From a virus (taxonomy: Duplodnaviria > Heunggongvirae > Uroviricota > Caudoviricetes): a stretch of 11,860 nucleotides of DNA. Numbering within the stretch: the stretch's first letter is position 1; each line of letters starts with the position of its first letter. A model generated the notes under the pieces. It was not told the origin of the DNA. It worked only from the letters and a program-made list of their open reading frames with translations, and made no database searches. The DNA lies in IMG/VR virus record IMGVR_UViG_2703718842_000002, positions 1-11,860 of that record; one strand, given 5' to 3'. Positions 3,871-11,860 of the stretch are shown here, piece after piece. The position numbers were made by a program, and so were the translations under genes.

Positions 3871-6800
3871 ATGGGTAAAGGCAGCAGTAAGGGGCATACC
3901 CCGCGCGAAGCAAAGGACAACCTGAAGTCCACGCAGTTGCTGAGTGTGATCGATGCCATCAGCGAAGGGCCGGTTGAAGGTCCGGTGGATGGATTAAAAA
4001 GCGTGCTGCTGAACAGTACACCGGTGCTGGACAGTGAGGGGAATACCAATATCTCCGGCGTCACGGTGGTGTTCCGGGCCGGTGAGCAGGAGCAGACACC
4101 GCCGGAGGGATTTGAATCCTCCGGCTCCGAGACGGTGCTGGGTACGGAAGTGAAATACGACACGCCGATCACCCGGACCATCACGTCGGCAAACATTGAC
4201 CGACTGCGCTTTACCTTCGGCGTGCAGGCACTGGTGGAAACCACCTCAAAGGGGGACAGGAATCCGTCGGAAGTCCGCCTGCTGGTTCAGATCCAGCGTA
4301 ATGGCGGCTGGGTGACGGAAAAAGACATCACCATTAAGGGCAAAACCACCTCGCAGTATCTGGCCTCGGTGGTGGTGGGTAACCTGCCGCCGCGCCCGTT
4401 CAATATCCGGATGCGCAGGATGACGCCGGACAGCACCACAGACCAGCTGCAGAACAAAACGCTCTGGTCGTCATACACCGAAATCATCGATGTGAAACAG
4501 GGCTACCCGAACACGGCACTGGTCGGCGTGCAGGTGGATTCGGAGCAGTTCGGCAGCCAGCAGGTGAGCCGTAATTATCATCTGCGCGGGCGCATTCTGC
4601 AGGTGCCGTCGAACTATAACCCGCAGACGCGGCAATACAGCGGTATCTGGGACGGAACGTTTAAACCGGCATACAGCAACAACATGGCCTGGTGTCTGTG
4701 GGATATGCTGACCCATCCGCGCTACGGCATGGGGAAACGTCTTGGTGCGGCGGATGTGGATAAATGGGCGCTGTATGTCATCGGCCAGTACTGCGACCAG
4801 TCAGTGCCGGACGGCTTTGGCGGCACGGAGCCGCGCATCACCTGTAATGCGTACCTGACCACACAGCGCAAGGCGTGGGATGTGCTCAGTGATTTCTGCT
4901 CGGCGATGCGCTGTATGCCGGTATGGAACGGGCAGACGCTGACGTTCGTGCAGGACCGACCATCAGATAAGGTGTGGACCTATAACCGCAGTAATGTGGT
5001 GATGCCGGATGATGGTGCGCCGTTCCGCTACAGCTTCAGCGCCCTGAAGGACCGCCATAATGCCGTTGAGGTGAACTGGATTGACCCGGACAACGGCTGG
5101 GAGACGGCGACAGAGCTTGTTGAAGATACGCAGGCCATTGCCCGTTACGGTCGTAATGTCACGAAGATGGATGCCTTTGGCTGTACCTGCCGGGGGCAGG
5201 CACACCGCGCCGGGCTGTGGCTGATTAAAACGGAGCTGCTGGAGACGCAGACCGTGGATTTCAGCGTGGGTGCCGAAGGGCTTCGCCATGTACCGGGCGA
5301 TGTCATTGAAATCTGTGATGATGACTATGCGGGGATCAGCACCGGCGGGCGCGTGCTGGCGGTGAACAGCCAGACCCGGACGCTGACGCTCGACCGTGAA
5401 ATCACGCTGCCATCCTCCGGCACCACGCTGATAAGCCTGGTTGACGGAAGTGGCAATCCGGTCAGCGTGGAGGTCCAGTCCGTCACCGACGGCGTGAAGG
5501 TGAAAGTGAGCCGGGTTCCTGACGGCGTTGCCGGATACAGCGTGTGGGGGCTGAAGCTGCCGACGCTGCGCCAGCGCCTGTTCCGCTGTGTGAGTATCCG
5601 TGAGAACGACGACGGCACGTATGCCATCACTGCCGTGCAGCATGTACCGGAGAAAGAAGCCATCGTGGATAACGGGGCGCACTTTGACGGTGACCAGAGC
5701 GGCACGGTGAATGGTGTCACGCCGCCAGCAGTGCAGCATCTGACCGCCGAAGTCACCGCAGACAGCGGGGAATATCAGGTGCTGGCGCGATGGGACACGC
5801 CGAAGGTGGTGAAGGGCGTGAGCTTTATGCTTCGCCTGACCGTGGCAGCGGATGACGGCAGTGAGCGGCTGGTCAGCACGGCCAGGACGACGGAAACCAC
5901 TTACCGCTTCACACAACTGGCTCTGGGGAACTACAGGCTGACAGTCCGGGCAGTAAATGCATGGGGACAGCAGGGCGATCCGGCGTCGGTATCGTTCCGG
6001 ATTGCCGCACCGGCAGCGCCGTCGCGGATTGAGCTGACGCCGGGCTATTTTCAGATAACCGCCACGCCGCATCTTGCCGTTTATGATCCGACGGTACAGT
6101 TTGAGTTCTGGTTCTCGGAAACGCGGATTACCGATATCAGGCAGGTTGAAACCACAGCCCGCTACCTTGGTGCGGGGCTGTACTGGATAGCCGCCAGTAT
6201 CAATATCAAACCGGGCCATGATTATTACTTTTATATCCGCAGTGTGAACACCGTTGGCAAATCGGCATTCGTGGAGGCTGTTGGTCAGCCGAGTGATGAC
6301 GCATCCGGCTATCTGGATTTTTTCAAAGGCGAGATAGGGAAAACCCATCTGGCTCAGGAGCTGTGGACGCAGATTGATAACGGTCAGCTTGCGCCTGACC
6401 TGGCTGAAATCAGGACGTCCATTACGGATGTCAGCAATGAAATCACACAGACCGTCAATAAGAAACTGGAAGACCAGAGTGCGGCAATTCAGCAGATACA
6501 GAAGGTTCAGGTTGATACAAATAATAACCTGAACAGCATGTGGGCTGTGAAGCTGCAGCAGATGCAGGACGGACGCCTTTATATCGCGGGTATTGGTGCC
6601 GGTATTGAGAACACCCCTGACGGCATGCAGAGTCAGGTGCTGCTGGCGGCGGACAGGATTGCGATGGTTAATCCTGCGAATGGCAACACAAAACCGATGT
6701 TTGTTGGTCAGGGCGATCAGATATTCATGAACGACGTGTTCCTGAAACGCCTGACGGCTCCCACCATTACCAGCGGTGGAAATCCACCGGCATTTTCCCT

Positions 6801-7353
6801 GACACCGGACGGGCGACTGACGGCGAAAAATGCGGATATCAGTGGCAGTGTGAATGCGAACGCCGGGACGCTCAACAATGTCACGATTAATGAGAACTGT
6901 CAGATTAAGGGGAAACTGTCAGCCAATCAGATTGAAGGCGATATTGTCAAAACGGTCAGCAAGTCTTTCCCCCGCACGAACAGTTATGCCAGTGGCACCA
7001 TCACGGTAAGAATCAGTGATGATCAGAAATTTGACCGGCAGGTCATGATACCGCCAGTGTTATTCCGCGGTGGTAAGCATGAGAATTTCAACAGTAATAA
7101 CCAACAGTCATACTGGTATTCAACCTGCCGGTTAAGAGTGACCCGCAATGGTCAGGAGATTTTTAATCAGTCCACGACGGATGCTCAGGGCGTATTTTCC
7201 TCCGTTATAGATATGCCTGCCGGACAGGGGACGCTGACACTGACATTCACCGTATCTTCATCAGGAGCGAATAACTGGACACCAACAACCAGTATCAGCG
7301 ATCTGCTGGTTGTGGTGATGAAAAAATCCACAGCAGGTATCAGTATCAGCTGA
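3871..7353 (+). CDS. J: Host-specificity / central tail-fibre (tail tip) protein J (lambda gpJ-like)
   Basis: 1160-aa ORF. N-terminal ~800 aa are near-identical to lambda J as I recall it ([34 protein letters not shown]...). GAGGA precedes the ATG. Stop TGA at 7351-7353. An internal patch and the C-terminal ~150 aa are diverged and lower in G+C (see findings). Confidence 0.95.
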
Positions 7354-7370: not shown

Positions 7371-7397
7371 GGGCGTCAGAAATGACGCCTTTTTTAT
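7371..7397 (+). terminator. Rho-independent terminator-like hairpin downstream of J
   Basis: ggcgtca (7372-7378), loop gaaa, tgacgcc (7383-7389), followed immediately by tttttt (7390-7395). Confidence 0.6.
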
Positions 7398-7419: not shown

Positions 7420-8019
7420 ATGCGTAAAGTTTGTGCAGCAATTTTGTCCGCAGCCATCTGTCTGGCCGTATCCGGTGCGCCTGCATGGGCGTCTGAACAT
7501 CAGTCCACGCTGAGCGCGGGGTATCTTCATGCCCGGACGAACGTTTCCGGCAGCGATGATCTGAACGGGATTAACGTGAAATACCGTTATGAGTTTACGG
7601 ACACGCTGGGAATGGTGACGTCATTCAGCTATGCAGGAGACAAGAATCGCCAGCTTACCCGTTACAGCGATACCCGCTGGCATGAAGATTCCGCGCGTAA
7701 CCGCTGGTTCAGCGTGATGGCGGGGCCGTCTGTGCGCGTGAATGAATGGTTCAGCGCGTATGCGATGGCGGGTGTGGCTTACAGCCGCGTGTCGACTTTC
7801 TCCGGGGATTATCTCCGCGTAACTGACAACAAGGGGAAAATGCACGATGTGCTGACCGGAAGTGATGACGGTCGCCACAGCAACACGTCTCTGGCGTGGG
7901 GGGCTGGCGTGCAGTTTAACCCGACCGAATCCGTGGCCATTGATATTGCTTATGAAGGCTCCGGCAGTGGCGACTGGCGCACTGACGGTTTCATCGTGGG
8001 GGTCGGTTATAAATTCTGA
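7420..8019 (+). CDS. lom: Lom-family outer-membrane beta-barrel protein (Ail/Lom/PagC/OmpX family), moron gene
   Basis: 199 aa. N-terminal signal peptide [24 protein letters not shown] followed by S. C-terminus ...[29 protein letters not shown] essentially matches lambda Lom. Conserved [14 protein letters not shown] and SAYAMAGVA strands are present. RBS GAGAGG lies 5-6 nt upstream of the ATG. Located between J and stf as in lambda. Confidence 0.9.
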
Positions 8020-8045: not shown

Positions 8046-8073
8046 AGCCCGCCGGTTAAGGCGGGCTTTTTTG
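8046..8073 (+). terminator. Rho-independent terminator-like hairpin downstream of lom
   Basis: agcccgcc (8046-8053), loop ggttaa, ggcgggct (8060-8067), then ttttt (8068-8072). Confidence 0.6.
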
Positions 8074-8083
8074 TGGGGTGAAT

Positions 8084-11000
8084 ATGGCAGTAAAGATTTC
8101 AGGTGTACTGAAAGACGGCACAGGAAAACCGGTACAGAACTGCACAATCCAGCTGAAAGCAAAACGTAACAGCACCACGGTGGTGGCGAACACGGTGGCC
8201 TCAGAAAATCCGGATGAAGCCGGGCGTTACAGCATGGACGTTGAGTACGGTCAGTACAGCGTTATTCTGTTGGTGGAAGGCTTCCCGCCATCGCATGCCG
8301 GGACCATCACCGTGTATGAAGACTCACAACCGGGTACGCTGAATGATTTTCTCGGTGCCATGACGGAGGATGATGTCCGTCCGGAGGCACTGCGCCGTTT
8401 TGAACTGATGGTGGAAGAGGTGGCGCGTAACGCGTCCGCGGTGGCACAGAACACGGCAGCCGCGAAGAAGTCAGCCAGCGATGCCAGCACATCAGCCCGT
8501 GAGGCGGCAACCCATGCGACTGATGCTGCAGGCTCAGCACGCGCAGCCAGCACGTCAGCCGGACAGGCCGCGTCGTCGGCTCAGTCAGCATCTTCCAGCG
8601 CAGGAACAGCATCAACAAAGGCCACTGAAGCATCAAAAAGTGCTGCCGCCGCAGAGTCTTCAAAAAGCGCGGCAGCCACCAGTGCCGGTGCAGCGAAAAC
8701 GTCAGAAACGAATGCCGCAGCATCACAAAAATCTGCGGCCACTTCTGCATCCACCGCGACCACGAAAGCGTCAGAAGCTGCCACCTCAGCCCGGGATGCG
8801 TCGGCTTCAAAAGTGGCGGCAAAATCATCAGAAACGAGCGCAGCCTCGAGCGCCGGCATTGCAGCTTCCTCGGCAACGGCGGCAGGAAATTCCGCGAAGG
8901 CCGCAAAAACGTCTGAGACGAATGCGGATAACAGCGCACAGGCGGCAGCAGACTCACAAACTGCATCGGCAAACTCCGCGACAGCAGCCAAAAAATCAGA
9001 AACCAACGCGAAAAATAGTGAGGCAGCAGCAAAGGTCAGCGAAACCAACGCTAAAGCGTCAGAGAACAAGGCGAAAGAATATCTCGACAAGGTCGGGGGA
9101 CTCGTCAGCCCGATGACGCAATACGATTGGCCTGTTGTTACTGCTAGTGAGTCTCTTTACATCAAGATCGCGAAACTTTCCGATCCTGGAACCAGCAGAA
9201 GTCATGTAACGCTAATGGTTACTAACGCTGGTAACTACGGCTCCCCTTACGGAAACATTGACTTTATCGAGATCTCGGCGCGCGGTCTGCCTTCTTTGCT
9301 TAGTGCGGATAATGTTTCTCGTCATCTGAGTATACGCCGCTTAGGGTCAACCGGGCTGACCGATAACAACCAGATGCGTTACGGCCTGGTTAAAGGTGAC
9401 GGCTTTATTGAGGTTTGGGCATTCCAGGGTGCGTTTATTAACGACGCAAAGGTTGCGGTGCTGGCGCAGACGGCACGCACGGAATTATACATTCCAGACG
9501 GATTTGTTAAGCAAACCGCCGCGCCTTCTGGATATATTGAAGGCAACGTTGTAAGGATTTACGACCAGGTAAACAAGCCGACTAAAGCAGATTTGGGTCT
9601 TTGTAATGCTATGCTTACAGGCGCTTTCGGTCTTGGCGGTAGCGGGATAGCAACAAACGGCAAGATGAGCGATGTAGAGATCTTAAAAGCTCTGCGTGAC
9701 AAAGGTGGTCATTTCTGGCGCGGTGATAAGCCGACCGGAAGCACGGCGACCATTTATAGCCACGGTTCTGGTATATTCTCGCGGTGCGGCGATACGTGGT
9801 CAGCGATCAATATCGACTACTCAACCGCGAAGATTAAGATCTATGCCGGCAACGATGCCCGGTTTAACAACGGGACTTTTAGCGTCAATGAGCTATACGG
9901 CTCGGCAAACAAGCCGTCGAAATCGGATGTTGGACTTGGCAACGTAACGAACGATGCGCAGGTAAAAAAAACCGGCGATACAATGACCGGTGACTTGACA
10001 ATCAAAAAAGGTACACCGTCAGTCTTCCTGCGGGCAGACAGTGGAGTCACCGCTTTGCGGTTTTATACTGGCGATAACACAGAGCGCGGCATAATCTATG
10101 CTGGTCCTAACACTGATTCGCTTGGCGAAGTTCGCATCAGGGCAAAGACAGCAGGGGGGACATCAGGAGGGGATCTTGTTGTTCGTCACGACGGGAGGGT
10201 TGAAGTCCGTGATCTCACAGTAGCGTATAAAATTAAAAGCAGAACGATTGAGATTGCAAATACCGACACTGACTCATCGGCAACTACGCTCAGCATCTAT
10301 GGAGTACAGCACACGCCATTGGTTTTAACGCGTTCTGGTTCTTCTGAAAATGTGTCCATTGGGTTTAAGTTAGACAATGTGAACCCAAAGTATCTTGGAA
10401 TTGATACTAATGGGGATCTGGCTTTTGGTGAGAGTCCTGATCAGAAACAAAACAGCAAATTGATCACGCAAGCGAAACTCGACAAGGGATTAACGATTGG
10501 TGGTCAACTGGCTTTCAAAGGTACGACAGCGTTTTCAGCCGCTGCTACGTTCAGTGCCGGGATAGCAGGAGCCATCGAGCCGGAAGCCATTGACGGCCGG
10601 ACTATTGATTTAAACGACTTGATTATTGCTAATACAGAAGCTGGATCCGTTAAATACTATCAATGCAAAACTGTCGCAGGTGGTGCAAATATTACCAATA
10701 AGCCTGACGGCGTAAGCGGTAACTTTTTGGTTCGTGTAGAGTCGATTCGTAAGACTACGGGATCAGATTATGCGAACATGCAAACGCTGATTAACAGCGA
10801 CACAAAACGTATATACGTTCGCTTTGTTGTTAATGGAAACTGGACAGCGTGGAGTCAGGTTGTTGTTTCCGGATGGAATCAGGATGTAACCGTCAGGTCG
10901 TTAACCTCGACGACTCCATCAAAATTAGGTGGCGGGCGGATTGATGTGCTTGGAAGTACGTCAGATTATGGCAGCATGAATTGTACCGTTCGTGGTGTTG

Positions 11001-11860
11001 ATAGCACTGGAACCAATTCGGCGTGGTCGGTAGGCACATCAGAAAGCACAGGCAAAATGTTGTTCCTGAAAAACCACAGAAGCAGCGCTCAAGTGCTGTT
11101 AAATGGCGATGATGGAGCGGTTCAACTACTAAGTGGCACTGTTAACGGTGCTACAGCGCAGGCGCTAACCATCAACAAAGATGAGGTTAACTCAACTGCC
11201 GATTTAGTAATTAGAAAACAAACAGGGACTGGCAATCGTTTTGCTTTACTTAATTCAGGTAATTCAGAACTACCAGTTAGTATCAGGGTGTGGGGTTCCA
11301 GTACTCGACAAAACGTTTTTGAGGTTGGCACGTCTGCTGCGTATCTGTTTTATGCGCAAAAAACAACAGACGGGCAAAACCTTACTGTAAACGGAAGTGT
11401 TAACTGCACCACACTGAATCAGTCATCAGACCGCAGACTGAAAGAAAATATCGAGATTATCGATAACGCGACTGACGCAATCCGCAAAATTAATGGATAC
11501 ACATACACGCTCAAGGAGAATGGGGCACATTGCGCCGGGGTTATAGCCCAGGAAGTTGAAGAGGCCATCCCGGAGGCCGTTGGTTCATTCATCCATTACG
11601 GTGAAGAGTTGCAAGGTCCGACCGTTGACGGCAACGAGCTACGCGAAGAAACGCGCTATCTTAATGTTGACTACGCCGCCGTGACGGGCTTACTTGTTCA
11701 GTTCGCCCGTGAAACAGATGATCGCGTTACCGCGCTGGAAGAGGAAAACACAACGCTACGTCAAAATCTGGCAACAGCAGACACCCGGATCAGCACTCTG
11801 GAAAATCAGGTAAGCGAACTGGTTGCACTTGTCCGGCAGTTAACAGGAAGCGAACATTGA
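8084..11860 (+). CDS. stf: Side tail fibre protein: lambda Stf-like N-terminal anchor + Ala/Ser-rich repeat stalk + divergent distal fibre module + C-terminal intramolecular-chaperone (peptidase S74-type) domain
   Basis: Track ORF 8078-11860 begins at a GTG; ATG at 8084 gives MAVKISGVLKDGTGKPVQNCTIQLKAKRNSTTVVANTV...SMDVEYGQYSVIL..., which matches the lambda Stf N-terminus, and GGGG sits 6 nt upstream. Stop TGA at 11858-11860 is the last codon in the window. Confidence 0.9.
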   Translation: MAVKISGVLKDGTGKPVQNCTIQLKAKRNSTTVVANTVASENPDEAGRYSMDVEYGQYSVILLVEGFPPSHAGTITVYEDSQPGTLNDFLGAMTEDDVRPEALRRFELMVEEVARNASAVAQNTAAAKKSASDASTSAREAATHATDAAGSARAASTSAGQAASSAQSASSSAGTASTKATEASKSAAAAESSKSAAATSAGAAKTSETNAAASQKSAATSASTATTKASEAATSARDASASKVAAKSSETSAASSAGIAASSATAAGNSAKAAKTSETNADNSAQAAADSQTASANSATAAKKSETNAKNSEAAAKVSETNAKASENKAKEYLDKVGGLVSPMTQYDWPVVTASESLYIKIAKLSDPGTSRSHVTLMVTNAGNYGSPYGNIDFIEISARGLPSLLSADNVSRHLSIRRLGSTGLTDNNQMRYGLVKGDGFIEVWAFQGAFINDAKVAVLAQTARTELYIPDGFVKQTAAPSGYIEGNVVRIYDQVNKPTKADLGLCNAMLTGAFGLGGSGIATNGKMSDVEILKALRDKGGHFWRGDKPTGSTATIYSHGSGIFSRCGDTWSAINIDYSTAKIKIYAGNDARFNNGTFSVNELYGSANKPSKSDVGLGNVTNDAQVKKTGDTMTGDLTIKKGTPSVFLRADSGVTALRFYTGDNTERGIIYAGPNTDSLGEVRIRAKTAGGTSGGDLVVRHDGRVEVRDLTVAYKIKSRTIEIANTDTDSSATTLSIYGVQHTPLVLTRSGSSENVSIGFKLDNVNPKYLGIDTNGDLAFGESPDQKQNSKLITQAKLDKGLTIGGQLAFKGTTAFSAAATFSAGIAGAIEPEAIDGRTIDLNDLIIANTEAGSVKYYQCKTVAGGANITNKPDGVSGNFLVRVESIRKTTGSDYANMQTLINSDTKRIYVRFVVNGNWTAWSQVVVSGWNQDVTVRSLTSTTPSKLGGGRIDVLGSTSDYGSMNCTVRGVDSTGTNSAWSVGTSESTGKMLFLKNHRSSAQVLLNGDDGAVQLLSGTVNGATAQALTINKDEVNSTADLVIRKQTGTGNRFALLNSGNSELPVSIRVWGSSTRQNVFEVGTSAAYLFYAQKTTDGQNLTVNGSVNCTTLNQSSDRRLKENIEIIDNATDAIRKINGYTYTLKENGAHCAGVIAQEVEEAIPEAVGSFIHYGEELQGPTVDGNELREETRYLNVDYAAVTGLLVQFARETDDRVTALEEENTTLRQNLATADTRISTLENQVSELVALVRQLTGSEH
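8430..9090 (+). repeat. Low-complexity Ala/Ser/Thr-rich coding repeats within stf (degenerate K-x-SETNA-type units)
   Basis: Translation is dominated by A/S/T/K with recurring KTSETNAAASQKSAATSAS, KTSETNADNS, KKSETNAKNSE, KVSETNAKASENKAKE. G+C is very high (about 65% by hand count at 8461-8520). This bias also produces long spurious ORFs on both strands. Confidence 0.55.
11426..11857 (+). other. C-terminal intramolecular chaperone / auto-proteolysis domain of the tail fibre (endosialidase-chaperone type, peptidase S74-like)
   Basis: Domain starts at the motif S-D-R-R-L-K (Ser codon 11426-11428, Lys codon 11441-11443), matching the S-D-x-x-x-K Ser/Lys dyad signature. The following ~140 aa (ENIEIIDNATDAIRKINGYTYTLKENG...YLNVDYAAVTGLLVQFARE...LEEENTTLRQNLATADTRISTLENQVSELVALVRQL) end in a heptad-like coiled-coil segment. 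Confidence 0.7.

Follow-up and report, generated by a model that had tools for sequence, protein, structure and literature searches.

Gene order and features of the window

The window, by which we mean the whole stretch of 11,860 nucleotides that was analysed, is the tail-tip end of a lambda-like Escherichia coli prophage, with its open reading frames in the order H, M, L, K, I, J, lom and stf. The annotations of lambda, 640R1 and PhiR70_1 show the same arrangement. From position 288 onwards the window shows 99.9% identity with a prophage of E. coli Ecol_AZ147, for which the RefSeq annotation gives the same order, and the best phage match to the whole window is vB_EcoS-640R1 (ON470612). The first 292 nucleotides start within an IS1 element, the terminal repeat of which (...atcagtaagttggcagcatcacc) ends at nucleotide 292, and homology to the tape-measure gene H begins at approximately 288. 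Since IS1 lies inside H, upstream of J, the prophage may be defective, and a J copy from a prophage interrupted in this way might never reach a virion.

Gene J (3871–7353, + strand), defined from its open reading frame and translation, specifies the 1160 amino acid central tail fibre or tip attachment protein (gpJ). Just 3' of its stop codon a pattern scan located a terminator-like hairpin and T-run (7371–7396, + strand), in which the hairpin itself occupies 7371–7390 and has an 8-pair stem followed by TTTTTATTGC. In phages 21 and 434, terminators are annotated at the equivalent point 3' of J. The adjoining gene, lom (7420–8019, + strand), lies outside the receptor-binding module and codes for a 199 amino acid outer-membrane protein of the Ail/Lom type (Pfam Ail_Lom, E = 2e-119). 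It is a 434-type allele, with nucleotide identities of 94–99% to phage 434 and 53–59% to lambda. A second terminator-like hairpin with a T-run is found at 8046–8067, and the two hairpins bracket lom.

The side tail fibre gene (8078–11860) runs past the end of the window and codes for at least 1260 residues; the Stf of Ur-lambda has 774. The product contains a phage_tail_N domain and, at residues 1117–1168, a Peptidase_S74 intramolecular-chaperone domain, and its homolog carries the RefSeq name 'pyocin knob domain-containing S74 family peptidase'. The distal part of stf is the lowest-G+C stretch of the window (44–47%).

Mosaic structure of the central tail fibre gene

Six Pfam domains, FNIII-A_GpJ, Phage-tail_3, Ig_J, Ig_J_second, Phage_Tail_Tip and Ig_GpJ_C, were identified in J, all well past their cut-offs. 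By this series of domains and by the gene order, J belongs to the lambda-family gpJ central tail fibres. BLASTP gave 83% identity over the full length to lambda J (NC_001416, 15505–18903), and neither frameshifts nor internal stop codons were seen in this copy, the frame being intact across 1160 codons.

Identity along the protein was counted per 40-column alignment block against lambda J. Residues 1–800, which are about 97–100% identical to lambda J, match it at 36–40 of 40 positions per block, residues 801–920 at 22, 5 and 18 of 40 with 28 residues inserted, residues 921–1000 at 30 and 38 of 40, and residues 1001–1160 at 15–22 of 40. Over the last 155 residues (nucleotides 6886–7350) the identity to lambda is 42.8% (tblastn), and the loops contain indels of 4, 5 and 1 residues. 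An earlier, sequence-only reading of the window had described the first ~1000 residues of J as lambda-like and the last ~150 as diverged. The second part of that description is borne out by the 42.8% figure; the first holds for residues 1–800 but overlooked a second diverged block at residues ~806–935. The span which that reading had singled out, 6890–7353, begins within codon 1007, at its second base; this codon specifies the first N of NENCQIKG.

The second block (6286–6675, + strand), delimited from the block and nucleotide identities, carries the 28-residue insertion relative to lambda. Its lambda counterpart is the alpha-helical shaft together with the top of the straight fibre, the shaft helix comprising residues 809–840 and 841–861 (PMC11101478). 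At the nucleotide level it is 40–65% identical to lambda and 434 versus 95–99% to phage 21, 640R1 and PhiR70_1; this shaft allele, common to the latter three and not to lambda or 434, therefore assorts independently of the receptor-binding domain. Beneath it lies a conserved segment of the lower straight fibre (6676–6885, + strand; residues 936–1005), with 91% nucleotide identity to lambda and 30 and 38 of 40 amino acids per block, which serves as the homology arm 5' of the receptor-binding module. The fusion point of the engineered fibre A8, lambda residue 964 (PMC11338833), falls inside this segment at window residue 992.

Sliding nucleotide identity to lambda stands at 90–100% up to ~6270, 40–65% in 6271–6720 and 91% in 6721–6870, then at 53–59% from 6871 through lom, returning to 89–100% from 7921. 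Against 640R1 it is 93–100% outside 6871–7320 and 56–75% inside, the dense mismatches being confined to ~6902–7288. This confinement to the receptor-binding stretch indicates that the domain has been exchanged independently. Phage 434 shares the lom allele with the window but neither the shaft nor the receptor-binding domain.

The G+C content of 6890–7353 is 47.2%, compared with 57.9% for 3871–6889, and at third codon positions the corresponding values are 53.5% and 70.1%. The equivalent stretch of lambda has 54.7% G+C, which makes the drop specific to the allele in the window. Two hand counts made in the sequence-only reading, about 40% at 7081–7140 and about 68% at 5341–5400, compare with computed values of 40.0% and 71.7%, the latter count being close. 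The low G+C of 6890–7353 was also considered as an anomaly and rejected as such, with z = -1.3 among all 464-nt segments of the window; the distal part of stf and the IS1/H end have a G+C content as low as this or below it.

The lower G+C relative to the rest of J, together with the sharp identity breakpoints, indicates that the receptor-binding domain is a horizontally exchanged cassette. It behaves as a unit of ~400 bp (~6900–7290), flanked on one side by the conserved lower fibre segment and on the other by the last ~20 codons of J, which are also conserved. The encoded protein was found at 99% identity or more in 19 phage records and at 95–99% in 25 more (tblastn). Most of these records are of Stx1a or Stx2a phages, with 2H10 and Turner also among them; many of the phages show 98–100% identity, and in the active phages 2H10, Turner and several Stx1a phages it is 100%. 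Among complete E. coli genomes, 1,022 records contain the DNA with an identity of at least 99%.

The receptor-binding domain and its predicted receptor

The receptor-binding domain (RBD; 6886–7350, + strand) comprises J residues 1006–1160 and, from its near-identity to A8 and phi330, is probably OmpC-specific. It includes Ig_GpJ_C, which Pfam describes as the "C-terminal receptor binding domain", at residues 1036–1160 (E = 5e-36). A phmmer search of the PDB matched "A8 gpJ 713" in entries 9wca and 9wcb (E = 2.5e-138). The whole RBD is identical in this chain and in the window, the sole differences being four residues upstream of it. Entry 9wca is entitled "Closed state of A8 gpJ 713 central tail fiber", and 9wcb, released on 2026-01-28, 'Open state of A8 gpJ 713 central tail fiber with OmpC G17 from E. 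coli EDL933'; the latter contains three 'A8 gpJ 713' chains and three OmpC chains. A literature search for 9WCA and 9WCB did not find a paper describing either entry. Single-sequence structure prediction of the RBD was poor (mean pLDDT 55) and served only as a route to PDB titles. With this rough model as the query, Foldseek gave 100% identity to 9wca/9wcb across 161 residues (window residues 1000–1160) and also matched the lambda structures 8xck and 8xcj at 44% identity. Its weaker matches (Cry toxins, birnavirus VP2 and others) were disregarded as meaningless.

In A8, lambda gpJ continues to residue 964 and is followed by the C-terminal part of gpJ from a natural E. coli prophage, a fusion made so that OmpC would replace LamB as the receptor (Brödel et al. 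2024, Nature, PMC11338833). In MG1655 delta-lamB delta-ompC carrying K-12 OmpC, A8 gave 95% delivery at an MOI of 84, whereas wild-type lambda gpJ gave 1.9% at an MOI of 135 in the same cells (PMC11338833). Together with a second chimera, 1A2, it gave efficient delivery for 21 of 23 OmpC alleles, two not being efficiently reached by either; 1A2 uses EDL933 OmpC but not K-12 OmpC, while A8 uses both (PMC11338833). The 'GpJ A8' DNA in the supplement of that paper aligns to window positions 6781–7353 at 94%, machine-reading errors included. Since tblastn against the machine-read A8 and 1A2 sequences was fragmented by such errors, the PDB sequence provides the clean comparison.

The second line of evidence comes from vB_EcoS_phi330 (phi330; PV189401), a long-tailed Stx2a siphophage (PMC12502783). 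Among 54 Keio outer-membrane-protein knockouts its lysis was lost only on the ompC mutant, and plaquing on delta-ompC was restored by Plac-ompC (PMC12502783). Its RBD is identical to that of the window at 153 of 155 residues, only N1037S and S1038T differing. [quoted passage not shown] With an offset of 118, verified by residue letters, these map to window residues 1071–1080 (7081–7110, + strand), a hairpin predicted to enter the OmpC barrel, and to the hairpin ANNWTP at residues 1133–1138 (7267–7284, + strand), a predicted OmpC contact. Relative to lambda, the former has 5 inserted residues, and at 33% G+C its codons form the most A+T-rich spot; they are the ones on which the hand count near 7081 had fallen. 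Both of the differences from phi330 sit in a short loop, TNSY, predicted in the phi330 model to be clear of OmpC (PMC12502783).

Given these identities, we consider it very probable that 6886–7350 encodes a lambda-family gpJ receptor-binding domain of the natural allele known from A8 and phi330, with OmpC as its receptor and with the opening mechanism and cassette history proposed here. The sequence-only reading had suggested an altered or different outer-membrane receptor and had proposed alignment to lambda J as the check; the alignment places the RBD outside the variation of LamB binders (42.8% identity, with indels in receptor-facing loops), and the identity to A8/9wcb and near-identity to phi330 point to OmpC rather than LamB. 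The observation is thus confirmed and the interpretation supported, and the essentials were already known from published work, including a deposited OmpC complex with a fibre chain identical over residues 1000–1160. With the receptor of this J allele published and the complex in the PDB, there is little discovery value here.

In lambda, receptor binding begins when four loops at the bottom of the trimer's Ig-like domains enter the extracellular lumen of trimeric LamB; the bases of these domains then part, the beta-prism above them twists and the helical shaft flips, and in the final step the FNIII domains come apart and the tube is opened (PMC11101478). For the fibre in the window we propose that the Ig-like RBD would likewise form a trimer at the fibre tip, whose bottom loops, including the inserted hairpin 1071–1080 and ANNWTP at 1133–1138, would dock on the trimeric porin OmpC and not on the maltoporin LamB. 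By analogy with lambda and LamB, binding would spread the bases of the three RBDs, and this in turn would lead to a twist of the beta-prism, a flip of the alpha-helical shaft, release of FNIII, opening of the tail tip and ejection of the DNA. The lambda structures, together with the existence of a 'closed' A8 structure and an 'open' one with OmpC, suggest this opening mechanism, with the same order of events and OmpC as the trigger.

Other interpretations were weighed. Perhaps this copy, with its long shaft allele and its IS1-interrupted prophage, acts mainly as a recombination reservoir through which superinfecting lambdoid phages switch from LamB or other receptor types to OmpC, or the long shaft, compared with A8, shifts the threshold for triggering or the set of OmpC alleles that can be used; we regard this as improbable. 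Nothing apart from the mosaic pattern suggests either idea. Less probable again is that the native fibre, by way of its long shaft or of OmpC variants, uses another receptor such as OmpF, FhuA, BtuB or a polysaccharide, either besides OmpC or in its place. A8 was indeed assayed as a chimera with the shaft of lambda, delivery was uneven across the 23 OmpC alleles, with two not efficiently reached by A8 or 1A2 (PMC11338833), and lambda J itself gains the use of OmpF through a few point mutations (PMC11101478). Phi330, however, was assayed with its native fibre, and among the 54 knockouts only the loss of ompC stopped its lysis (PMC12502783), and the TNSY loop that holds its two RBD differences is predicted to lie off OmpC.

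It is very unlikely that the RBD still binds LamB and that its divergence is ordinary drift among LamB-binding J proteins. The domain does share its fold family with that of lambda (Ig_GpJ_C; Foldseek matches to 8xck and 8xcj at 44%) and has ~43% of its residues in common with it, but an identical RBD is functional when lamB is deleted, subject to which OmpC allele is supplied (PMC11338833), lysis by phi330 is lost on ompC only (PMC12502783), two receptor-facing loops carry indels relative to lambda, and the solved complex contains OmpC (9wcb). The idea of a decaying, functionless remnant of a defective prophage, its low G+C reflecting relaxed constraint, can be dismissed almost entirely, for although IS1 interrupts the upstream tape-measure gene, the J frame is intact over all 1160 codons, and the conservation of the RBD in 1,022 complete genome records (DNA identity of at least 99%) and, as a 100% identical protein, in active phages makes the low G+C a property of a functional allele.

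With OmpC as the preferred receptor, a prophage or Stx phage with this ~155-residue RBD can be annotated as OmpC-dependent. With a DNA identity threshold of 99%, such a label would apply to about one in five complete E. coli genomes, and it bears on host range, superinfection and the spread of stx genes. Lambdoid receptor modules swap as ~400-bp cassettes with conserved arms, a property that has also been exploited to retarget lambda particles.

Comparison with known systems

The RBD of lambda (PDB 8xcj, 8xck), a LamB binder, belongs to the same Pfam family as that of the window and has the same Ig-like fold. In each case the domain forms the tip of a trimeric fibre, beneath a conserved fibre segment that the two proteins share, and the triggering mechanism is presumably common to both. 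It differs in sequence (42.8% identity), in receptor (LamB rather than OmpC) and in base composition (54.7% versus 47.2% G+C). Judged by sequence similarity and by loop lengths relative to lambda J ~980–1132, the RBD in the window falls outside the lambda-type, LamB-binding class.

The gpJ of phage 434 and of lambda h434 is an OmpC binder (PMC11101478, PMC12502783). The 434 RBD thus shares with the window the receptor and the fold family, but at 43.2% identity (45.1% for lambda h434) it is no closer than that of lambda, and its loops differ in length and sequence. By similarity the window is not a member of the 434-type OmpC-binding class either, and its predicted use of OmpC is that of a separate allele class.

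The RBD of 640R1 is ~60% identical to that of the window, with flanks 93–99% identical. It resembles chimera 1A2, although this link is approximate, being drawn from a machine-read, error-laden sequence and a translation read by eye. Comparison of window 6871–7320 with ON470612 6600–7060 suggests that one OmpC-allele specificity has been naturally exchanged for another. In the classical phage 21 (OL657228, 4001–4465) the J RBD is 81% identical to that of the window, far above lambda or 434. A statement of its receptor was not found in the literature searched, including the paper announcing the genomes of phages 21 and 434, and literature searches likewise returned nothing on the receptors of PhiR70_1, Chlobot, mEp332 and mEp460. 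A 2026 receptor-prediction preprint has Drexlerviridae gpJ, not the A8-type RBD, as its scope.

The closest relatives are A8 and phi330, and near-identity (100% over residues 1000–1160 for A8; 153/155 for phi330) places the RBD in their class. A8 shares with the window residues 1000–1160 in their entirety and, as far as the window's receptor can be predicted, the use of OmpC. Its donor part, from lambda position 965 to the end, is identical at 167 of 168 residues, residue 998 being A in the window and S in A8. Unlike the natural J of the window, which has the long shaft allele (+28 residues), A8 is engineered on lambda residues 1–964 and has the short shaft. Phi330 has the same hairpins and is a natural phage in which OmpC dependence has been demonstrated genetically; the annotation of its fibre gene lacks 118 N-terminal residues relative to J of the window, it differs at ~14 positions just above the RBD and it carries stx2a. 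Andrews and Fields described the J of lambda_2H10 as only 40–60% identical to lambda over the last ~150 residues, with a host range of its own, and the RBD of 2H10 is 100% identical to that of the window.
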